Positions 5,749-46,444 of a stretch of DNA of 64,000 nucleotides are shown here, in pieces. This DNA is from Dehalococcoidia bacterium (GTDB lineage: Bacteria; Chloroflexota; Dehalococcoidia; Bin125), in the NCBI GenBank assembly GCA_965232875.1, contig OZ247431.1, positions 249,319-313,318 of the forward strand, given 5' to 3'. The notes beneath the pieces are model-generated. The model saw only the letters and a program-made list of their open reading frames with translations, searched no databases and was not told the origin of the DNA. The translations under genes and the position numbers were made by a program. How positions within the stretch are numbered: position 1 is the stretch's first letter; every line of letters starts with the position of its first letter.

Positions 5749-7140
5749 ATGCCGCTTCCCCAGACCGCGCCGTCACAAAAGACGCTAACGGCCGAATTTG
5801 TCGCTCTTGATGCCGAGCGGCAGGTCGCTCTGCTGACGGACGCGAGTCCGCTCGACGAAAAGAACCGCTATCTCCCCTGGGAAGAGGTGCGCTACCGCCA
5901 ACCGCCGGGCGGCCTCAGCGCCCGCCTTTATTGGTTCGGCATGGCTATGGCGCGCCGAGCTTCGGCTCGCACCTTGCCCCTCCTCGGGCGCGGCGATCAG
6001 CCGTTCTGGTACTGCAACGCCCAACCGCTATTGGCCTCGCTCAATCGGCTCGATCAAGCTCAACGCGCCCACATCCTCGCCGATGAGACGTTGATGACCA
6101 ATGCCTCCCGCCGGCGCTGGCTGCAGCGCGGGCTGATGGATGAGTCCATCCAGTCCAGCAGGCTCGAAGGCGCCAACACCAGCCGCCAACTGGCACGCGA
6201 AATGCTCAACGACGGCTGGCCTCCGCGCGATAAAAGCGAGCGCATGATTGCCAACAACTTTGCTGCCATGCAGACCATCGAGGAATGGGCGACCAACGGC
6301 GAGCCAATCGATCTCGAACACATCCTGCGGTTGCACCGGATCGTCACCGTTGGAACTCTTCGCGATGACAACGATGCTGGGCGATTACAGCAACCGGGCG
6401 AAGCCCGCGTTTACGTCGTCTCCGCGAGCCAGGAGGTCGTCCACAGGCCGCCGCCAGCCGACGAGTTGCCGGAGCGGATGCGGCGCATCCGTGAATTCGC
6501 CGATCCGGATTCGGATAGTGAATTCATCCATCCGCTCCTCCGTGCGATCCTGCTCCACTTCATGATCGGCTACGACCATCCCTTTGTCGATGGCAACGGG
6601 CGCACGGCGCGAGCGCTCTTCTACTGGTCGCTGCTGCGCTCCGGCTGGTGGCTGGCGCCCTACTTGCCGATCTCACACTTCCTCCTGCGAGCGCCCGCGC
6701 AGTATTCGCGTGCGTATCAATACGTGACCGCGGACGACAACGACGTCACACACTTCCTCCTACAACAACTCGACATCATTGAGCAGGCCGTTGATCAGCT
6801 CGGCCATGATCTACAGGAGCAAGCTGCCGCGACCCGACATCTCCTGGAGCGACTAGATGAAGACGGCTTTAGCGAACGCCAGCTTGCGATGCTGCAAAGC
6901 GCTGTCGAACAACCCAATCGCATCTTCACCATCGCCCAGCAACAGAACGAGCATCGTGTCTCTTATTGGGCTGCCCGCGCCGACCTCCAGAACCTGACCG
7001 AGCGCGGTTACCTCTTGCGCGAGCGCTCAGGCAAGAAGTTCGTCTTCCGACCCGCGCCGGATCTGCAAGAACGGCTAGAACCCGTCACACAGATCGCACC
7101 AACCGCAAACCCGTCCGCCGCCCAAGCCGAACCATGCTAA
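5749..7140 (+). CDS. Fic family protein (class II-like) with probable C-terminal wHTH
   Basis: Canonical HPFVDGNGRTAR motif; N-terminal inhibitory SSRLEG. Confidence 0.92.
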   Translation: MPLPQTAPSQKTLTAEFVALDAERQVALLTDASPLDEKNRYLPWEEVRYRQPPGGLSARLYWFGMAMARRASARTLPLLGRGDQPFWYCNAQPLLASLNRLDQAQRAHILADETLMTNASRRRWLQRGLMDESIQSSRLEGANTSRQLAREMLNDGWPPRDKSERMIANNFAAMQTIEEWATNGEPIDLEHILRLHRIVTVGTLRDDNDAGRLQQPGEARVYVVSASQEVVHRPPPADELPERMRRIREFADPDSDSEFIHPLLRAILLHFMIGYDHPFVDGNGRTARALFYWSLLRSGWWLAPYLPISHFLLRAPAQYSRAYQYVTADDNDVTHFLLQQLDIIEQAVDQLGHDLQEQAAATRHLLERLDEDGFSERQLAMLQSAVEQPNRIFTIAQQQNEHRVSYWAARADLQNLTERGYLLRERSGKKFVFRPAPDLQERLEPVTQIAPTANPSAAQAEPC

Positions 7141-7270
7141 TCTCAGAACGCATGCGCGAAAGAAGGCGGATGTCGATGACCTTCCCTTACCCAATCACAG
7201 CCCCGGCCTCCGCCGGACGCCGTCAGAACCAGGACGACCGAGCCCAACAATGCCGTACCGGATTGTCCGT

Positions 7271-7447
7271 ATCCGAACAAACCCGAACAGAATTCCCTGA
7301 ACCAGACCGAAAAAACCTGAAAAAACCTGAAAGACCTGAAATACGATCCCCAGCGCTGCACAGGAGATCGCGCCCTCAGAGCCTCCGAAAAAAATTAAAC
7401 CCGAAAACCTGAATGCCGAAAAACAAACGCCTCGACCGAACACCGAA
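7271..7447 (+). repeat. ~10-bp-phased A/C-rich direct repeat array
   Basis: CCGAACAAAC CCGAACAG... CCGAAAAAAC CTGAAAAAAC CTGAAAGAC CTGAAATAC, then AAAAAAATT. Confidence 0.65.
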
Positions 7448-7537
7448 ATGCAGCGCGAGAGCCCGTCGACGCCGTCCCACGCCCAGCTATGTGTTCAGCC
7501 CCTGGGCGGGTAGTCTGCAGATGTGAAGGAGTGAGCG

Positions 7538-8419
7538 ATGGCGTCGCGCCGAGAACAAGCAGGGCTGCAACTTACACGCCCCTTGCATTGGTACACGCTG
7601 CAAGCGATGCAGAAGATGTCGTTGCCGGCGACGAATCAGGAGATCGACTCGGCGGTCGCAGGGTTGCTCAAGCTAACCCCTGCACAATGTGCAGTGATGC
7701 ACTCGAATGGCAGGCAGACTGAGCTCGCCTACCGTGTCGCTTGGCAACGATCTGTGTTGCGCGTGGCCGGCGCTGTCGATCGTGTTGCGCCAGGCCTTTG
7801 GACCCTGACTGAAGAAGGCTGGGGCATCTCGTCCGAGCTCGTTGAGAAGCGATACAAGCAGCATCTCGCTGATAAGCGGGCAGGGCAACCTGATGACAGC
7901 GAAGAAGACCACGACGGAAAAGACGATTCTCCCGACGACGAATCTGCATGGTCAGATGCGTTGCTTGATCGGCTAAAGCAAGTGTCGCCCGCAGGCTTCG
8001 AGCATCTGTCCGCCGCTCTGCTGCGCGCCGCCGGATTCGACGATGTCGAAGTCACTGGACGCTCTGGCGACGGCGGTATCGATGGCATCGGAATCTACCG
8101 ACCTTCCGGCCTGATCTCGTTCCATACCGCTTTCCAGTGCAAGCGATATCAAGGCTCAGTCGGAGCAGGCTCAGTCCGCGATTTCCGTGGATCGTTCGTT
8201 GGACGCGCCGAACGCGGGATCATGTTGACGACCGGACACTTCACCCGTGATGCGCGTGATGAGGCGACTCGCGCGGGCGCGAATCCCGTAGATCTGATCG
8301 ATGGAGAGACGTTCTGCGAGCTGCTTCGGGAGCACTCGTTAGGCGTCCGCACGACACAGCGAGTTGTTGAGGACATCACCATTGACGACGCCTACTTCAA
8401 CCAGTTTGAGGACACCTAA
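7538..8419 (+). CDS. mrr: Mrr-family type IV restriction endonuclease
   Basis: Mrr_N-like (RVAWQRSVLR...GLWTLTEEG) plus Mrr_cat GDGGIDG...QCKRY...LIDG. Confidence 0.9.
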   Translation: MASRREQAGLQLTRPLHWYTLQAMQKMSLPATNQEIDSAVAGLLKLTPAQCAVMHSNGRQTELAYRVAWQRSVLRVAGAVDRVAPGLWTLTEEGWGISSELVEKRYKQHLADKRAGQPDDSEEDHDGKDDSPDDESAWSDALLDRLKQVSPAGFEHLSAALLRAAGFDDVEVTGRSGDGGIDGIGIYRPSGLISFHTAFQCKRYQGSVGAGSVRDFRGSFVGRAERGIMLTTGHFTRDARDEATRAGANPVDLIDGETFCELLREHSLGVRTTQRVVEDITIDDAYFNQFEDT

Positions 8420-9180
8420 TGAACCAGATGCGCGGCGTTCTTCTCGATGTCCTCGTTGCCTTGATCATTTTGATGGCTGGTGGGGCGATCTTTGCTCGCA
8501 TTGCCGGCGTCGAGGAAGGTGAGTCTGCGCCGGCCTGGGTTCAGTTTGCTCCTCTTGTGCTGGCGATGCTCTTTCTTGGTTGGCGGACGGTCCGCCGCAA
8601 CCGGCAGCGACGTGAGGCAGAGGCTCGGGCCGAGGCGGATCCGCTCACAGACCACCGCGAACTCGAACGCGTCGAAGACCCGCCCATGGACGACTTCCAA
8701 TGGCGCTCGCGGCTGGAGTCTTCGATCCGCAACCTGGGTCGCGACGCCTTTGAACAGTTCACCAGGCGCATTCTGCACGCGATGCAAATCGTCGATCTCG
8801 AGGTGGTTCGAGTCGCGTTCGATGGGGCAATCGAGTGCGTTGGCGTCCAGGACGATGAGGAACGCGCCAGCGTCTATGTGATCTGCCGCCGCTCGTTCGG
8901 CTCACTCGGCGCCAACCAGGTGCGCGAGATGAAGACCCTGATGGCCGACAAAGCCGCAGAAGGACTGTTCATCACGAATGGCGAGTTCTCCTCCTCGGCC
9001 ATCGACGAGGCGGATGAAGGGGACGAATCGATCGACCTGGTCGATGGCGATGACTTGCTCGATCTGATGCACACGCACCGGCTCGGCTTGATCTTTGACG
9101 AGATGGGCCGGGTGACCGCAATCGACAACGAGTGGTTCCAGGACCTGGAACGCGATCACCGATTTGCAGATGGAGACTGA
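8419..9180 (+). CDS. membrane-anchored Mrr_cat-like protein with degenerate active site
   Basis: Two N-terminal hydrophobic helices; AFEQF...DGAIECVG...ICRR...GLFITNGEFS...DLVDGDDL. Confidence 0.75.
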   Translation: MNQMRGVLLDVLVALIILMAGGAIFARIAGVEEGESAPAWVQFAPLVLAMLFLGWRTVRRNRQRREAEARAEADPLTDHRELERVEDPPMDDFQWRSRLESSIRNLGRDAFEQFTRRILHAMQIVDLEVVRVAFDGAIECVGVQDDEERASVYVICRRSFGSLGANQVREMKTLMADKAAEGLFITNGEFSSSAIDEADEGDESIDLVDGDDLLDLMHTHRLGLIFDEMGRVTAIDNEWFQDLERDHRFADGD

Positions 9181-10420: not shown

Positions 10421-10518
10421 TGGCGGGAGCGCATGGGAGTCGAACCCACCCGAGACGGTGCGGACCGCCCCGCATCAGTGTTGAAGACTGTGGAGGACAC
10501 CGGTCCCCTTCCGCTCCC
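10421..10518 (-). tRNA. selC: tRNA-Sec (anticodon UCA)
   Basis: Reverse complement GGGAGCGG...CAGT-CT-TCA-AC-ACTG, long variable arm, GGGTTCGACTCCC, ends CGCTCCCGCCA; ~98 nt. Confidence 0.93.
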
Positions 10519-14453: not shown

Positions 14454-16029
14454 CCTAATTCTCCGTGGCGGCACAGTGGTCGATGGTACGGGTAGAGGGG
14501 CATTCCCTGCTGATGTGGCGGTCGAAGGCGATCGGATTTCGGCGCTCGGGGATCTTTCGGGATTGACAGCAGCTCGTGAGATCGATGCGACCGGACTGGT
14601 CGTGTCTCCCGGATTCGTCGACACCCATGCGCACTCGGACGGGGTCCTGCTGCGCGACGCAGTCCATGCGCATGGTTTGGTTCAGGGGGTGACGACCGAG
14701 TTCATCACCCAGGACGGTCTGTCCTACGCCATGTTGTCGGGTGACAATCTGCAGTTCTACGGACGCTACATCGCCGGCCTGTACGGTCCGCCTCCGACCG
14801 ACCTGGACATGTCCTCAATGGCCGCGTTTCGGTCGCACTACGAAGGCAAGGGATGCAACGTCGCCGTGCAGGTTCCGCATGGACCTGTCCGATTGGAAAG
14901 CGTCGGTTTCGAGGACGTTCCGCTACAGGGCGCAGGACTGTCAAACGCTGAGCGAATGGTCGCCGAGGGGATGGAACAGGGCGCGACCGGCTTTTCGACG
15001 GGCCTGTCGTACTACCCGAACTCATACTCGGACACCGAGGAGTTGGTAGCGCTCAACCGTGTCGTCGCTGAACACGGTGGCGTGTACGTGACGCATATCC
15101 GCAATCACAACGACGACCGCGCGCCCGATGGCTCGGGCATCGTCGAAGCGATGAATATTGGCCGTCGCAGCGGCGTCAATGTCCATATCTCGCACTACCG
15201 CACGTTTCCCAGCAACGCCGGACAGATCGACTTGATCATGTCGGAAGTCGACAAGGCCAAGGCCGATGGCGTCGACGTGACGCTGGAGTGCTACCCCTAC
15301 GCCGCCGCGGCAACCGTCCCGGGATACTTCCTGCGCGGCGAGTGTCATGTCGGTGGTATCGACCGGCTGCTGGAGCGGCTCGGTGATCCCGCCTGGCGCG
15401 ATCGGTTGGTTGACTCGCTCGAGAACCTGTTCCCCGGACGCAGCGACAGCGCCACCTGGACCTGGATCGGCGCCGACCATCTTAAGCACCTCGAAGGTTT
15501 GTCCTTCGCCGACGCCGCGACCGCAATGGGCGTATCGGTTTCAGAGATGACGTTGACCGTGATGCGAGAGTCAGGATTGCAGTGCGGATTCCGCGACGGC
15601 CTGCCGGCCAGCGCGTCGTTGGTGCGCCAGGTCGAGGCTGACGTGATCGCGCTGCTCTCGCGCGATGACTACATGGTCGGCTCGGACGGCATCCCCTTCG
15701 ACGAGGGCATTCCACACCCCCGCGCCTACGGGACGTTCCCACGAATCCTCGGTCGCCTCCGCCGTCGCCTGGGCGTCTCGCTCGAGCACCTGGTGCGAGG
15801 AATGACATCGCTGCCTTGCGAACGGTTTGGTCTAACCGACCGAGGCGTGGTCGCCGAGGGCAAGTTCGCTGACCTCGTCGTGTTCGATCCAGACACGATC
15901 ATCGACACGGCCGACTTCAACGACCCTCGAACGCCGCCGGCAGGTATTCCCTACGTGGTGGTTAACGGTCAGGTCGCCGTGGATGGCGGCCGTCCAACTG
16001 GTGCGCTGGCAGGTCGGTCGATTCCCTGA
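14446..16029 (+). CDS. N-acyl-D-amino-acid deacylase (D-aminoacylase) family
   Basis: PGFVDTHAHSD, THIR, GSDG, HPRAYGTFPR. Confidence 0.9.
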   Translation: MVDLILRGGTVVDGTGRGAFPADVAVEGDRISALGDLSGLTAAREIDATGLVVSPGFVDTHAHSDGVLLRDAVHAHGLVQGVTTEFITQDGLSYAMLSGDNLQFYGRYIAGLYGPPPTDLDMSSMAAFRSHYEGKGCNVAVQVPHGPVRLESVGFEDVPLQGAGLSNAERMVAEGMEQGATGFSTGLSYYPNSYSDTEELVALNRVVAEHGGVYVTHIRNHNDDRAPDGSGIVEAMNIGRRSGVNVHISHYRTFPSNAGQIDLIMSEVDKAKADGVDVTLECYPYAAAATVPGYFLRGECHVGGIDRLLERLGDPAWRDRLVDSLENLFPGRSDSATWTWIGADHLKHLEGLSFADAATAMGVSVSEMTLTVMRESGLQCGFRDGLPASASLVRQVEADVIALLSRDDYMVGSDGIPFDEGIPHPRAYGTFPRILGRLRRRLGVSLEHLVRGMTSLPCERFGLTDRGVVAEGKFADLVVFDPDTIIDTADFNDPRTPPAGIPYVVVNGQVAVDGGRPTGALAGRSIP

Positions 16030-16073
16030 GCGTTCTTGGACCTCTCCCAACGGGAGCGGGGACAGGATTGGGG

Positions 16074-16817
16074 TTAGCCGGCGGCGGCTGACTGGATTTC
16101 CTTTGGTTGCGGTCCTTCGATTTGCTGGTCGACCAGCCGGAGCAGTTCTTCGGGGGAGAGGTCGTCGAGTTGGCGGTCGGGTGATTGGTTGAGAATTTTC
16201 TCCGGAGCGTCGGTGGTGGGGACGTCCAGTGTTTTACGGGGAATGGGGTGGTCGGAGTGGTTAGGTTTGGAAGGTTTTGGTAGGCCGTGGTGGATGTTGG
16301 TCGGCTGTCTGGGCTTGGCCGACGCGCCCGACTTGGCCGACGCGCCCGACTTAGCCGGCTTGGCCGGCTTGGCCGGCTTGGGAGCGGCGGTGAGTTCGTC
16401 GACGGGGAAGTCGAGTTCCTGGGGGAGATCGCCGGGTTCGATGTCTCGGAGTTCGGCGCGCTCGTGGAGTTGGGCCATGAGTCGTCGCGTCTCGCGGAGG
16501 ACGATGGCGAGTTCGTGGTTGTGGGCCTGATAGAAGCGGGCGAAGTCGGTCGGGTTCAAGTGGCCGAAGTCTTTGACCAGGTCGCGCCGGAGGAGATTGC
16601 GCAAGCGGCGCTGGAGCAGGCCGAGTTGTTCGAGCAGGAAGTCGTCGGCGGACTGGCGGGTGATCTCGCTCCAATGGGTCTCGATGAGTTTGAGGTCGGC
16701 GAGGGCGGTGGCGTGGGAGATGTTGAGCAGCTTGCCGATGTTGCGGAGGGAGCGTCCCTGCTGTCGGAGTTCGTGGACTTTGAGGGCGCGCTGTCTTCGT
16801 CGTGGCGAGATTTGCAT
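16074..16817 (-). CDS. orphan HTH protein with low-complexity C-terminus (terminase small subunit-like N-terminus is possible)
   Basis: RALKVHELRQQGRSLRNIGKLLNISHATALADL HTH; KPAKPAKPAKSGASAKSGASAK tandem repeat. Confidence 0.7.
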   Translation of the reverse strand: MQISPRRRQRALKVHELRQQGRSLRNIGKLLNISHATALADLKLIETHWSEITRQSADDFLLEQLGLLQRRLRNLLRRDLVKDFGHLNPTDFARFYQAHNHELAIVLRETRRLMAQLHERAELRDIEPGDLPQELDFPVDELTAAPKPAKPAKPAKSGASAKSGASAKPRQPTNIHHGLPKPSKPNHSDHPIPRKTLDVPTTDAPEKILNQSPDRQLDDLSPEELLRLVDQQIEGPQPKEIQSAAAG

Positions 16818-16838
16818 GGTCGGGGCCTTTCCTTGTAC

Positions 16839-16850
16839 GCACAGATGTTC
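16839..16850. promoter_or_regulatory. putative LexA (GAAC-N4-GTTC type) box
   Basis: Minus strand GAACATCTGTGC, one mismatch, ~20 bp upstream of the HTH gene. Confidence 0.4.
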
Positions 16851-16947
16851 TGTATAGGGTATAGTGAATATGTTCTGAGTTTAGGTCGGACTGTGCATTA
16901 GCAAACATCGGCGGGCGGGAGCCGCGTCGAACAGAAGCAAGGAGAGG

Positions 16948-17202
16948 ATGATGTCCGAGATGCGCGACCTGGAGGAGCTTCGGGAACAGGCGGCGGTGGA
17001 GAAGATATACCGCGAGGCGGTGGAGACGCTGTACCTGATTGTGATGGCGTATGCGGGATCGGGGGAGGGGGAGCATCCGATCCAGGCGTTGGTGCGCGAG
17101 CATCCTGGTTCGAACGTTTATTTCTGGTACGGCTTGATGAAGATGACGGCGGAGGCGCTCTCGGAGGACGGGTTGATTCCGCAGGCGAGCGGGGACGGCT
17201 GA
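16948..17202 (+). CDS. small hypothetical protein
   Basis: Strong RBS AAGGAGAGG; divergent from the HTH gene. Confidence 0.6.
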   Translation: MMSEMRDLEELREQAAVEKIYREAVETLYLIVMAYAGSGEGEHPIQALVREHPGSNVYFWYGLMKMTAEALSEDGLIPQASGDG

Positions 17203-17234
17203 GGCCTAGCGTGCGCCGTGAATGGATGAATCGC

Positions 17235-17397
17235 CCTCGTTCTTGAGGAGATGTCACGGAGTGACAGAGAGGGGGTCGGCTGGCGACGGCCAGATAGGGC
17301 CAACAGGCAGCCCCCCCTCTGCCCCCGGGTCAAGCCCGGGGCAGGCTTTCGGCATCTCCCCCGCAAGGGGGGAGAAGGGGAGTTATGCGTCAGTCTC
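17235..17397. mobile_element. MITE/REP family B copy
   Basis: GGAGATGTCACGGAGTGACAGAG...GGCATCTCCCCCGCAAGGGGGGAGAAGGGGAG; right end TTATGCGTCAGTCTC. Confidence 0.75.
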
Positions 17398-17420
17398 CCA
17401 AAGTGGGAGATCTGGGAGTC

Positions 17421-18665
17421 CTACTCGACCACGCCGTCAACCATCAACTGATGAAACTCCGCCTCGCTATAGCCGCAGAGTTCCCGGTAGACGTATTCGG
17501 AATCTTCACCCAACAAGGGTGAGCGACGAGGCATCGGCGGCGGTGTGTCGCTGAGACGCCAAGGTGGGCTTTCGTAGGACATTTCGCCGATCACTGGGTG
17601 GTCGCTCGGCCACCAGTGGTTGCGATGGGCGAGCTGTGGGTCCTCGTGGGCGTCGCGCACTGTGGATGCTCGATGGGCCGGGATTTCGACAGCCTGGAGT
17701 TCTCGCTCGACTTCGTCAACGGTTCTCTGAGATGTCCAACGAGTTATACCGTCGTCGAGTGCGTCCTGCGCGGCCAGGCGTCCAGCGGCATGACAGAGTT
17801 CTTCGGACTCAAGCCAATCTTGTCGATCCATGATCAGCGCCAGGCGTCGCCATTGGTCGTCCGATGTCACGGCGATCGCGACCCAGCGGTCGCTGCCGGT
17901 GTGGTCGTCGGCGCAGGGATAGACGCCGTGCGGGGCAAAACGCAGATCTCGGTTACCGAGCGGCTTGGCCACTCGGCCCGTGTTGGCTGCATCTATCACT
18001 CCGGCGTCCAGAACCAGGGTCGAGGCTTCGAATTGCGAGAGGTCGATGTATTGGCCCTCGCCCGTCCGGCGGCGATGGTCGAGCGCGGCCAGAATGCCGA
18101 TGATCGCGACGTGGGTCGCGACCCAGTCGGTGTAGGCGACGCCCGTACCGACCGGCGGCAAGTCGGGCCATCCCGTGACCCCGGTCACGCCAGCGGTCGC
18201 TTGCAAGGTGAGACCGAAGCCTCGGAACCGCGCGTGCGGTCCGGTCTGGCCTTCCATCGACATCGAGCACATGATCACGTCGGGTTTGATGTTGCGGACT
18301 GCCTCGTAGTTGAGGCCGAGTCGGTCCATGAATCCCGGCGCAAACGACTCAGTCACGATGTCGGCGCTGGCGATCAGGCGCCGCGCAACTTCCGCGCCAC
18401 GTTCATGGGCGAGGTTGATCGCCACTGACCGCTTTCCGCGATTGAACTTGGCGAAGTACGACGAGGCGTCAAGCGAGTGATCGCCAGCGGGACGGGGCCC
18501 GCCGGATCGGAACGTATCGGGACGACGCGTCGACTCCACCCGGATGACTTCAGCGCCGTGAAACGCCATCTGCATGGTTGCGTTTGGTCCAACGCCGACC
18601 CAGGCGAAGTCGGCGATGCGAACGCCGTCGAACAGGTGCGCGCCAGGAATCTCGTTGCTGCTCAT
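17421..18665 (-). CDS. class III CoA-transferase (CaiB/BaiF), catalytic subunit
   Basis: DFAWVGVGP, NRGKRS, AYTD with catalytic Asp. Confidence 0.9.
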   Translation of the reverse strand: MSSNEIPGAHLFDGVRIADFAWVGVGPNATMQMAFHGAEVIRVESTRRPDTFRSGGPRPAGDHSLDASSYFAKFNRGKRSVAINLAHERGAEVARRLIASADIVTESFAPGFMDRLGLNYEAVRNIKPDVIMCSMSMEGQTGPHARFRGFGLTLQATAGVTGVTGWPDLPPVGTGVAYTDWVATHVAIIGILAALDHRRRTGEGQYIDLSQFEASTLVLDAGVIDAANTGRVAKPLGNRDLRFAPHGVYPCADDHTGSDRWVAIAVTSDDQWRRLALIMDRQDWLESEELCHAAGRLAAQDALDDGITRWTSQRTVDEVERELQAVEIPAHRASTVRDAHEDPQLAHRNHWWPSDHPVIGEMSYESPPWRLSDTPPPMPRRSPLLGEDSEYVYRELCGYSEAEFHQLMVDGVVE

Positions 18666-34811: not shown

Positions 34812-34921
34812 CTGAACGGAATCGAACAGAACCGAACAAGAGCGAACAGATTCGAACGCGCATACTCGTCCACGGTCGCTCAGAATTGAACACAACCGAA
34901 CAGATCCGAACAAAACGAACA
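34812..34921 (+). repeat. 10-bp-phased GAAC array (5 + 4 units)
   Basis: CTGAAC GGAATCGAAC AGAACCGAAC AAGAGCGAAC AGATTCGAAC / AGAATTGAAC ACAACCGAAC AGATCCGAAC AAAACGAAC. Confidence 0.75.
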
Positions 34922-34937
34922 CAGTTGGGAGACCCGG

Positions 34938-43889: not shown

Positions 43890-46444
43890 TGACCACCCAG
43901 CGCCGGCCGACGCAGACGCTTCAGTCCATGCTGGCGCTGGAGGAAAAGCTGGGCTACCTCGATCGGGCGGTTTCGGGCGGCCTCGACACGTATCTGCGCA
44001 ACGTGCTCAAGGAGGGCGATCAGCGTCAATTCTTCACACGCATTGTCGCGGCGCTGCCGAAGGAGGGGTACGCAGCATTGACCCCCGACGAGCGCAGAAA
44101 GTGGGCGGCTGGTGTGCACGCCACCCTGCGCCCAGGATCCCCCCCCAGAAGCTCCAAACGCCCAGACAAATCTGTAACAACTCCGACAAACGAGGAACGG
44201 TTGGCCCGGAATCGGGATCAATCCCAACGAAATCTAGACAAATCTGGACAAATCCGAACACCAAAACGCACGAAGTCCAGCCGTAGACGCCCAATCGCCG
44301 CATTCGAAGACGAAAATCCCCTCATCCGAGACATTTCCGTGCTGGGACGCATCCCGTCGCAATCGCGCAAGGCGATGACGACGCTCGGGATCAACACGGT
44401 GTACGACCTGCTCTGGCACCTGCCTCGTCGATACGAGGACTGGCGCAACGTCCGTTCTATCTCCGAGGCCTTGGAAGGCATTGAGCTGACCATTGTCGGT
44501 GAGATCGCCAGCATCGGCGTGAAGTATCTGCGCAAGGGACGCCAGGCGACGGAGGCGGTGGTGCGCGACGGCTCGGGCAGTCTCAGAGTCTGGTGGTGGT
44601 CGCAACCGTATCTGGCGCGCTCGCTGCGACCGGGGATGCGAGTTGGATTGTCGGGCAGGATCGATATGCGCGGACGTCAGCTGCAAATGGTATCGCCCGA
44701 GTGGGAACGACTCGATGATCCGGAGGACGACACCGTCCACGTGGGTCGTCTGTCGCCCGTCTATCCAAGGTCCAAGGGTTTGCCAAACCGGACCATCCGA
44801 AGATTGGCTCACGTGGCGGTCCGCGACTATCTGCCGCTGCTGGCCGACTCGCTGCCGCCGCACATCGTGCTCGAGCACCGGTTCCCCTCCGAGGCCGACG
44901 CGCTGAGGATGATCCACTTTCCCGAGCAGATGGAAGATGTTGATACCGCCAGGCAGCGGATCGCGTTTCAGGAACTGCTCTCGATTCAACTTGCGGTCCT
45001 GTCGCGAAAACGCGAGGCGCGACTGCGTTCGGACGCGCCGCCGATCGCCATGCCCGGTGATTTCCTCGACACGTTTCTCGGAGCGCTGCCGTTCGAGCTC
45101 ACTGTCGCCCAGCAGCGTGTGTTGACCGAGATCCGCAACGACATGTTCCGCCGAGAGCCGATGGCGCGGTTGTTGCAGGGCGACGTCGGGTCGGGCAAGA
45201 CCGTGGTTGCCGCCGCCGCAATGTTGGCCTCGGTGCGGGCCAAGCATCAGACGGTGCTCATGGCGCCGACCGAAGTCCTGGCCTCGCAGCACTTCGAGAC
45301 CTTCCAACGGCTCTTCGCCGGGCAGGACCACGCCGACGGCGACCAGCTCTGGCATAACTACAGCCTGGCTCCGGCGCTGGGGCGGCCGGTGCGGATGGCG
45401 CTGTTGACGGGCAGTGTGCGGGCCGCGCGCAAGCGACAGATTCACCAGGAGATGGAGAGCGGCATGCTCGACCTGGTGGTCGGCACGCACGCGCTGATCC
45501 AGGAGAGCGCCAACTTCAAGGACCTCGGCCTCGCCGTCGTCGATGAACAGCACCGATTCGGCGTCTTGCAGCGCGACGCGCTGCGCAGCAAGGGTCGCAG
45601 TCCGCATCTGTTGGTGATGACGGCCACGCCGATTCCACGAACGCTGGCCCTGACGGTCTACGGCGAGTTGGACTCATCGGTGATCGACGAACTGCCGCCC
45701 GGTCGGCTACGTGTACAAACGCAGATCGTGGCGCCATCGAGCCGCGAGGAGATCGTCTACCGGCGCATCCGCGAAGAAGCGAAGTTGGGTCGGCAGTCGT
45801 TTGTCATCTGCCCATTGGTTGAGGAGTCGGAGAAGCTCGAAGCCGAAGCCGCGACGGCGCAGTTCGAGACTCTGCGCAACGGCCCGTTGCGTGAACTGGC
45901 GTCTCGGATCCGGTTGCTGCATGGGCGGATGTCGTCGGAGGAGAAGCAGTCGGTGATGGCTGATCTGGCCAACGGCGATGCCGACGTGCTGGTCTCGACG
46001 ATCGTGGTTGAGGTCGGCGTCGACTTGCCCAGGGCGACCGTGATGGCGATCGAGGGCGCGGATCGATTCGGCCTGGCGCAGTTGCACCAGCTTCGCGGAC
46101 GCGTCGGACGCAGCGACATGGAGTCGGTCTGTTACCTGATCTCGGAAACTGAACTGGACCAGAGTCGTCAGCGGTTGGAACTGATGGTGCAGACTTCGAA
46201 CGGATTCGAGCTGGCCGAGGCCGACCTCGAGATGCGAGGTCCGGGGGAGTACTTCGGAACGCGTCAGTCAGGCTTGCCCGAGTTGCGCGTTGCCAAGCTC
46301 ACCGATCACGAGACGTTGAATCTGGCCAGGAACTGGGCCAACCGGATCCTGGATGAGGATCCACACCTGCGCGCCCCCGAGCATCGGCTGCTGAGAGATC
46401 GGGCCAAGGGATTTGATGTCTCAGGCGCGACGGCGGTGCACTAG
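43889..46444 (+). CDS. recG: ATP-dependent DNA helicase RecG
   Basis: QGDVGSGKT, DEQHRFG, TATPIPRTL, QLRGRVGR. Confidence 0.96.
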   Translation: MTTQRRPTQTLQSMLALEEKLGYLDRAVSGGLDTYLRNVLKEGDQRQFFTRIVAALPKEGYAALTPDERRKWAAGVHATLRPGSPPRSSKRPDKSVTTPTNEERLARNRDQSQRNLDKSGQIRTPKRTKSSRRRPIAAFEDENPLIRDISVLGRIPSQSRKAMTTLGINTVYDLLWHLPRRYEDWRNVRSISEALEGIELTIVGEIASIGVKYLRKGRQATEAVVRDGSGSLRVWWWSQPYLARSLRPGMRVGLSGRIDMRGRQLQMVSPEWERLDDPEDDTVHVGRLSPVYPRSKGLPNRTIRRLAHVAVRDYLPLLADSLPPHIVLEHRFPSEADALRMIHFPEQMEDVDTARQRIAFQELLSIQLAVLSRKREARLRSDAPPIAMPGDFLDTFLGALPFELTVAQQRVLTEIRNDMFRREPMARLLQGDVGSGKTVVAAAAMLASVRAKHQTVLMAPTEVLASQHFETFQRLFAGQDHADGDQLWHNYSLAPALGRPVRMALLTGSVRAARKRQIHQEMESGMLDLVVGTHALIQESANFKDLGLAVVDEQHRFGVLQRDALRSKGRSPHLLVMTATPIPRTLALTVYGELDSSVIDELPPGRLRVQTQIVAPSSREEIVYRRIREEAKLGRQSFVICPLVEESEKLEAEAATAQFETLRNGPLRELASRIRLLHGRMSSEEKQSVMADLANGDADVLVSTIVVEVGVDLPRATVMAIEGADRFGLAQLHQLRGRVGRSDMESVCYLISETELDQSRQRLELMVQTSNGFELAEADLEMRGPGEYFGTRQSGLPELRVAKLTDHETLNLARNWANRILDEDPHLRAPEHRLLRDRAKGFDVSGATAVH
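44150..44270 (+). repeat. 10-bp-phased array inside the recG N-terminal linker
   Basis: CCCAGACAAA TCTGTAACAA CTCCGACAAA ... AATCTAGACA AATCTGGACA AATCCGAACA. Confidence 0.6.

Follow-up and report, generated by a model that had tools for sequence, protein, structure and literature searches.

A conserved divergent cassette encoding an uncharacterised helix-turn-helix hairpin protein, with LexA-like boxes, in sponge-associated Dehalococcoidia

The window analysed here is a 64-kb stretch of DNA (G000:C1:249319-313318, on contig C1 of genome G000) from a sponge-associated Dehalococcoidia bacterium whose genome has 3.35 Mb and 62% G+C. It contains two open reading frames (ORFs) facing apart with 130 bp between them, one on the minus strand (16074-16817 of the window) coding for 247 amino acids (aa) and one on the plus strand (16948-17202) coding for 84 aa. 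From the letters alone, an initial annotation had seen in the first an orphan gene for a helix-turn-helix (HTH) protein akin to the phage small terminase (TerS), with a phased repeat array of its own, a LexA-like box and a divergent small ORF, which is the 84-aa one, and had proposed a packaging or transfer signal. The question raised by this locus is what kind of gene this is, and whether its repeats act as DNA or follow from what they encode. It belongs to a real conserved cassette, most likely under LexA control, for an uncharacterised HTH and hairpin protein of a lineage-restricted, many-copy family. We give a probability of about 60% to the full reading, in which the two divergent genes, for the HTH protein and a partner, are controlled by LexA through the shared 130-bp region and the DNA repeats are consequences of coding.

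The HTH-hairpin protein, its family and its partner

The AlphaFold2 model of the 247-aa protein, built from 23 homologs, showed helices at residues 5-19, 24-31, 35-77 and 89-124, with a predicted local distance difference test score (pLDDT) of 86-97 in this block, up to about residue 120. The helices 5-19 and 24-31 and the third, from residue 35, form a three-helix HTH; the third helix extends as far as residue 77 and forms a long hairpin with helix 89-124. Apart from a helix at 222-233, residues 126-247 are disordered. The N-terminal HTH and helical region of the initial annotation are thus well founded, with helices from 5 to 124 and an HTH_38 match in 23 of 23 members. Codons 1-125 (16443-16817, minus strand), in which most of the 42 invariant columns of the alignment fall, would be a structured module for DNA binding and oligomerisation, as the pLDDT, these columns and HTH_38 suggest. 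In the tail, codons 222-233 (16119-16154, minus strand) encode a predicted amphipathic helix, LSPEELLRLVDQ, before the conserved ...AAAG end, and the C-terminal consensus LTPEQL..AETFLRN..AAAGG is conserved among the homologs. For this protein itself the Pfam HTH_38 match has an E of 0.0018, below the cut-off; over the 23 members, at E<=1, HTH_38 matched 23, HTH_23 22, HTH_50 17 and HTH_SB 14, so far as sequence tells generic HTH families only. Searches of NCBIfam and PHROGs returned only weak generic matches, PADLOC none for four proteins, the PDB sequence profile search a best E of 0.17 and no TerS, and the ESM Atlas only generic HTH clusters.

The gene is no orphan, as had been supposed. 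The genome has six family genes, five besides this one, and 33 clusters were found in a collection of 5.8 billion proteins. The profile search of 1.84 billion representatives gave 151 proteins at E<=0.001, of which 70 reached <=1e-10 and 21 reached <=1e-30; the remote ones have generic HTH domains only. Among 401 sampled genomes of the class, matches occurred in 15, all from one taxonomic family (G000 and 14 of 25), and in none of the 375 sampled genomes from other Dehalococcoidia families. Within the positive taxonomic family, 25 of 61 genomes carry the HTH family, with up to 16 matches per genome, and its presence is patchy even inside one genus (15/32). The HTH family thus appears restricted to one Dehalococcoidia family, as a many-copy family; no paper on it was found in the literature.

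Over residues 1-161, the closest paralog (C1:986270-987055) shares 88% identity with this protein. The duplication spans the two-gene unit between its two stop codons (window 16072-17198) at 81% identity, and the small ORF copy beside this paralog has 69% amino-acid identity. Against this paralog, at a dS of ~0.25, the ratio of nonsynonymous to synonymous substitution rates (dN/dS) was 0.23 for residues 1-145, 0.60 for residues 146-247 and 0.57 for the small ORF, which argues that both are real genes under selection. The DNA contigs from sequencing runs showed the window form and a second form, that of the paralog, and no others; among the runs listed as containing this stretch, none was of RNA.

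A homolog of the 84-aa ORF stands directly upstream and divergent in 8 of 15 related loci, as it does at the closest paralog. Its alignment has 22 invariant columns, and AlphaFold2 predicted a three-helix protein (pLDDT 75), for which the fold search gave no match lower than E 2.5. By its conserved place and columns, the ORF appears to be a conserved partner gene of the HTH gene; the complex prediction for the 247-aa and 84-aa proteins scored 0.01. The window's flanking genes adjoin the cassette in none of the 15 related loci: a homolog of the flanking amidohydrolase was found in 0 of 15, and locus L024 alone has distant (28-32%) CoA-transferase homologs, 1-3.6 kb from the HTH gene.

Two further paralogs, at G000:C1:203940-204736 and 1073157-1073954, are 97% identical exactly from the start codon to ~88 bp past the stop and have unlike promoters and boxes (GAACATCTGTTC vs GAACGCACGTAC), a pattern that points to gene conversion, or to exchange of the cassette, downstream of the control region. 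Of the paralogs in this genome the most distant, G000:C1:1836816-1837622 on the minus strand, has a CPCGSGQKRKHC stretch near its C-terminus, which we take to be SEC-C-like, and an inverted GTTC-N6-GAAC where the usual box stands.

LexA-type boxes in the shared control region

The LexA-like box, GCACAGATGTTC on the plus strand (GAACATCTGTGC on the gene strand), is at 16839-16850 and has the form GAAC-N4-GTGC; it begins 33 nt before the ATG. It is a candidate LexA operator of the Cheo type (GAAC-N4-GTTC) with one mismatch, called box 2 here. Read along the gene strand, the control region consists of CAGAACATATTCAC-TATACCCTATACA-GAACATCTGTGC and of a further 21 nt, with AAGGAAAGG, that lead to the ATG. 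Next to box 2 is a spacer (16851-16863) in which we read back-to-back -10-like hexamers, TATACA/TATACC leftward and TATAGT/TATAGG rightward, and beyond it a degenerate second box, box 1 (GAACATATTCAC on the gene strand, 16864-16875, minus strand), whose paralog equivalent is GAAC-N4-ATTC.

We compared the upstream regions of 20 family members, six from this genome (paralogs labelled p) and 14 loci from other genomes (labelled L; L023 was omitted as a duplicate of L021). Two GAAC-led boxes flank TAnAnT in all 20 except p6, L021, L024 and L025. A strict GAAC-N4-GTnC box was present within 120 nt upstream in 17 of the 20, starting at -29 to -34 in 12; as background, 31 of 2,918 other crude genes have a strict box within -90 to +6. 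Relaxed matches to box 1 lie 25 nt upstream of box 2 in p3, p4, p5, L011, L018 and L020, and 26 nt upstream in L019. The palindrome is perfect at p3, p5 and L020.

The same type of box stands at the genes of the SOS response itself. The LexA gene of this genome (G000:C1:2747250-2748014) matches TIGR00498 at 142 bits, above the cut-off, and its product contains AAG, GDSM and LKR stretches, whose roles are presumed. Its promoter reads TTGACA...CAGAAT, followed by the perfect box CAGAACGGACGTTCC (GAAC-GGAC-GTTC). At recA, TTGACA-N17-TAACTT is followed by GAAC-GCCT-GTGC, the same GTGC variant as at the HTH gene. In five of five related genomes without the HTH family, the lexA promoter keeps the box (three perfect, one GCAC variant, one GTTT variant), and the box is therefore tied to LexA and not to the HTH proteins. 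Genome-wide, 13 of 37 perfect boxes, 24 of 64 with GTAC and 14 of 63 with GTGC are intergenic, in a genome that is 12.3% intergenic. The LexA-like box of the initial annotation thus gained in substance through its conservation before 17 of 20 members and its recurrence at lexA, at recA and at the five lexA promoters. Fernandez de Henestrosa and colleagues are said to have reported, in 2002, a Cheo-type box for Dehalococcoides too; we found no paper on the LexA regulons of Dehalococcoidia sponge symbionts. According to PMC4234289, GAACN4GTTC is the consensus for LexA of Bacillus subtilis, and in Clostridioides variants with GTTT are also accepted.

From this arrangement we infer a simple switch. 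LexA would occupy the two Cheo-type boxes (GAAC-N4-GTnC) that flank the back-to-back -10-like hexamers in the shared 130-bp region and keep both genes off; upon DNA damage, active RecA would lead LexA to cleave itself, and both genes would be expressed. The 247-aa product would then bind DNA by its N-terminal HTH and associate with itself by the long helical hairpin. Its disordered tail, with the variable linker, the HHGLPKxSKPNHSxHPIPxKT motif and the terminal helix, may contact a partner. The 84-aa product would be a co-induced partner or modulator.

Two further families carry a box, AGAAC-N4-(G/A)T(A/G/T)C, in the same position ahead of the ribosome-binding site. One is a sister HTH family (MSNPPTPRRCRR...), ~42% identical over residues 4-68, with 11 HTH-only matches and 10 called genes by our labelling. 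The other, of 119 aa (MPNPYHLRARIDRLWRRS...), has 20 tblastn matches and 13 called genes; it has no Pfam match at E<=0.01, to an HTH or other family, though it bears the box. The cassette is one of several small, many-copy, box-bearing units of the lineage and behaves as accessory, probably selfish DNA.

Examples of the sister family (MSNPPTPRRCRRILAAHHL...) are at G000:C1:1091108-1091839, 1263899-1264600, 1905904-1906491, 2100011-2100763 and 2290881-2291612. Six copies share a common ~1-kb unit at ~90% identity, each with TTGACT-N17-CACAAT followed by CAGAACATACGTACC, and the C-terminal parts of the family differ in length and contain AAATCTGGAC arrays. The 119-aa family lies in ~540-bp units with a box-like AGAACATACATAC before the start (for example G000:C1:33278-33637, 506161-506520, 1185884-1186243 and 3096503-3096832); its acidic C-terminal end, ...EDDDPW, presumably recalls the tail tip of SSB.

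Repeats, strand skew and surroundings of the cassette

The 9/18-bp tandems of the initial annotation were recovered by Tandem Repeats Finder (TRF) at 16314-16381 (period 9, 7.6 copies) and 16314-16375 (period 18, 3.4 copies). This segment of the minus-strand gene encodes the linker PKPAKPAKPAKSGASAKSGASAKP, made of Ala, Lys, Pro and Ser, which is the sole region that varies freely in length and sequence among the 23 homologs; at the linker, the closest paralog has 58 other letters where the window has 13. The tandem is best taken as a slippage-prone linker, its DNA repeats following from the coding sequence.

The second repeat is the C/A-rich segment at 16246-16305 (minus strand), with a weak 10-bp beat, CCAAAA-N4-CCAAAC-N2-AACCAC. 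The lag-10 autocorrelation of this segment is 0.54, compared with 0.25 ± 0.06 for coding 60-mers (0.036% of 19,281 reach 0.54); among 5,000 60-mers drawn at random from the genome, 0.9% attain this value when each is taken at its own best lag. The strength of the beat is roughly the chance yield of a 64-kb window. Of 13 homologous segments, 12 had 10 as their best lag (that of the window had 20), and the shuffle P was <=0.05 in 10 of 13, three of these segments being near-identical to each other. Of the phased array claimed earlier, the beat is therefore there and recurs at lag 10 in the homologs, but TRF made no call in this segment at a minimum score of 30, and composition-preserving shuffles gave only P=0.035. 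The same letters encode the best-conserved part of the C-terminal half, TNxHHGLPKxSKPNHSxHPIPxKT, in which P180 and K184 are invariant. Third-base identity in this motif is 0.94 over 17 conserved columns, compared with 0.82-0.85 in the N-terminal part, and all 11 sequences keep the CCA, AAA and ACA codons, in a genome where A-ending codons are rare (12%). Because the coding strand avoids G, codons ending in A are chosen, and a constraint at the protein level is therefore sufficient; the beat probably arises from the CCA, AAA, AAC and CAC codons of a conserved peptide on a G-poor strand.

Period-10 arrays are frequent in this genome, with 228 TRF rows (202 after merging); 97 of the 228 rows are intergenic, intergenic DNA being ~12% of the genome. 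Their units fall into three classes with phased A-tracts, AAATCTGGAC, AAAACCTGAA and AATCGAACAG. One array (G000:C1:1127839-1127878) lies upstream of recA. The suggested link between the HTH gene and arrays at 7271, 34812 and 44150 of the window lost its ground here: the window's arrays (7309-7341, 34814-34923 and 44230-44254) are three of the 202, with units unlike the in-gene sequence. A whole array is contained in 1 of 6 genes of the family, 8 of 10 of the sister family, 0 of 13 of the 119-aa family and 103 of the 2,918 others, the paralogs not being independent. The expectation that paralogs would carry arrays of their own thus held for the HTH and sister families together (9 of 16 genes vs 103 of 2,918) but not for p3-p5, three of the six direct paralogs. 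Since the strand is poor in T and G, stop codons are rare, and reading frames can therefore run on through array-bearing DNA. We also tried the arrays as marks of SOS promoters and rejected them: for 8 of 51 intergenic boxes an array was no more than 300 bp away, compared with 3.7 ± 1.9 for random intergenic places (maximum 10 in 1,000 draws), which is too weak.

The strong strand skew noticed earlier was found again. On the plus strand the GC skew is +0.28 to +0.47 over 16000-17299 and near 0 outside. It spans both oppositely facing genes and ends at the cassette edges, and is therefore a property of the DNA unit and not of the coding direction. The coding-strand GC skew of the HTH gene, -0.325, ranks among the lowest 0.75% of the 2,947 crude gene calls, and the 40 most C-skewed of these genes are mostly from this HTH family, the sister HTH family and the 119-aa family.

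Several of these observations weigh against control by LexA with repeats that merely follow from coding. Perfect boxes number 37 genome-wide against 39.7 expected by chance, so that only their intergenic share is enriched and the motif is weak by itself. There is one mismatch in box 2 and there are at least two in box 1, and no strict box was found at p6 and two of the other loci. The consensus sigma-70 scan of 15950-17450 found no promoter, and the promoter placement therefore rests on analogy. The in-gene period-10 arrays in 9 of 16 genes of the two HTH families, together with the third-base conservation, leave room for a role of the gene's 3' half at the DNA level, which it may have. The skew of the whole cassette, small ORF included, is not accounted for by this explanation.

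Among 20 neighbouring proteins scanned were Fic, two Mrr-type nucleases, isocitrate dehydrogenase, DUF4268, VTC, CotH, the amidohydrolase, CoA-transferases, enoyl-CoA hydratase and proteins without assignment; none was a phage protein, in agreement with the initial annotation. At 5749-9177 (plus strand) a Fic-domain gene and then two genes for Mrr-type restriction endonucleases resemble a small defence-like cluster. In the Rfam scan of the window only a tRNA-Sec matched (10425-10518, minus strand; RF01852, 66.4 bits).

Alternative explanations and known systems

Best placed among the alternatives, and in our view unlikely, is a remnant or accessory DNA-binding protein of a transposable element, with a transposase-type HTH (HTH_38, HTH_23, Sleeping Beauty HTH) and no catalytic domain. 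Its action on the 150-bp repeats that flank the cassette, or on elements related to them, would account for the many copies. The Pfam matches named above are of such families (HTH_38 in all 23 members, HTH_23 in 22, HTH_SB in 14), the copies number up to 16 per genome and are patchy within one genus, and the flanking genes are not shared between loci, L024 with its distant CoA-transferases excepted. A copy of a ~150-bp, hairpin-rich interspersed repeat, known from 142 merged places in the genome, forms the right edge of the cassette (17247-17400), and a copy is found no more than 300 bp from 4 of 6 genes of the family, 8 of 10 of the sister family and 235 of the 2,918 others (8%). But these HTH matches are generic and no catalytic DDE domain was found: only HTH families matched, residues 126-247 are disordered, and the search for longer fused forms found none, though this is weak evidence. 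Stop codons bound the duplicated unit, and no terminal inverted repeats or target duplications were noticed at the unit ends, without a systematic search. Pieces of the 150-bp repeat are apparently translated in frame, as peptides like PFPSPPLAGGDAAGRGG, in terminase-like genes and two sister-family HTH genes; they resemble the Rickettsia palindromic elements.

Next in standing, and quite unlikely, is a TerS-like recognition subunit, which would form a ring, bind phased sites including the beat in its own gene and hand DNA to solitary large-terminase (TerL)-like proteins after SOS induction, for packaging in helper capsids or for damage-induced DNA processing. In the TerS scheme of PMC9611059, protomers of 15-21 kDa comprise an HTH, a helical-hairpin core (8-11-mer ring), a stalk and a C-terminal moiety that is flexible; the model has the HTH, hairpin core and flexible moiety, but its 247 aa exceed this size. 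The same source places the P22 pac site inside its terS gene, and period-10 arrays lie inside 9 of 16 HTH-family genes, but p3-p5 have none. In fold comparison, the top Foldseek match in the PDB was the G20c small terminase 4xvn_F (E 0.073, probability 0.85, TM 0.25/0.36), and BFVD gave several TerS at E 0.03-0.2 among unnamed HTH proteins, but in neither did any match reach E 0.001. VIA-align placed residues 6-123 on 9oox_A, an entry of a T6 small-terminase complex, with Z 8.4, but its wide search was filled with generic helical hairpins at Z ~9, so that Z 8-9 is background for hairpins. No TerS profile matched significantly (Phage_terminase PF10668 in 2 of 23 members at E 0.044), and no terminase family was among the weak PHROG matches.

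Nor do the loci look like those of a packaging gene. In 15 loci, up to 5 kb of flank contains no TerL-like gene, none was noticed within 20 kb of family genes when the listed coordinates were compared by eye, and the capsid (PF05065) and portal (PF04860) models found no match in the genome. A TerL-like gene is present in 25 of 25 family-positive genomes (of 61), but 16 genomes have one without having the family, and kinship confounds this co-occurrence. This genome has three solitary Terminase_3-type genes, G000:C1:892809-894551 (plus), 1162464-1164122 (minus) and 2643894-2645549 (minus), with Terminase_3 matches at E 7.6e-10 and 3.3e-9. They lie among metabolic genes and are C-skewed, and two have a GAAC-N4-ATTC box upstream in a divergent control region, which would suit this reading; a small ORF related to the 119-aa family (892595-892936) lies directly upstream of one. 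Kinship with TerS is inconclusive on these models; we claim no TerS membership and assign no function. The packaging-signal idea is without direct support.

Third, and improbable too, the boxes could be promoter or autoregulatory elements specific to these families and bound by the HTH proteins, a likeness to LexA sites that is convergent or a mimic, the genes being self-regulated and not part of the SOS response. HTH proteins often autoregulate, the box accompanies three unrelated-looking small families at the same distance from the ribosome-binding site, and many copies share the deviation from the palindrome, GTAC or ATAC. But the same type of box stands at lexA and recA, and at lexA in the five genomes that lack the family, the palindrome is perfect at p3, p5 and L020, and the box-bearing 119-aa family has no Pfam match. 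Very improbable is that a phage packaging machine gave rise to an SOS-switched system for handling DNA, dispersed and capsid-less, with TerS-like HTH families, solitary large terminases and the 119-aa family each behind a LexA-type box, in which the HTH proteins read phased A-tract arrays in their own genes and ~200 other places and the cell or a helper phage cuts or packages there after damage.

We thus prefer the cassette controlled by LexA. Should the boxes be LexA operators, small many-copy units (6, 10 and 13 called genes in the three families, by our labelling, and three terminase-like genes) would make up most of the SOS regulon, by number, in these uncultured sponge symbionts. Such a make-up would be unusual, with DNA damage as the trigger for selfish or domesticated elements, and the HTH family would be a testable handle on the ~200 phased arrays and the orphan terminases. 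If the protein is merely a lineage-specific regulator on junk-like cassettes, the interest is local.

Three known systems can be set beside this cassette. As in TerS (G20c/P74-26; PDB 4xvn, 6ejq, 6v1i), an N-terminal HTH precedes a long helical hairpin and a C-terminal part that is flexible; the recognition site of some pac phages lies inside terS (PMC9611059). Unlike TerS, the sequence and fold matches are below significance, no terL, portal or capsid gene adjoins, and the protein is larger and occurs in many copies per genome. With IS30-type and Tc1/mariner-type transposases it shares HTH_38 and HTH_23 as best Pfam matches, at residues 5-40, but it has no catalytic domain, and its hairpin and tail are without counterpart there. 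With the LexA (SOS) regulon genes of Firmicutes and Actinobacteria the cassette shares a Cheo-type box, placed beside the -10 region and present at the genome's own lexA and recA; unlike GAAC-N4-GTTC, most boxes here have GTGC or GTAC as the second half-site, and unlike the known LexA regulon genes, those behind the boxes here are not repair genes but a lineage-specific, many-copy family.

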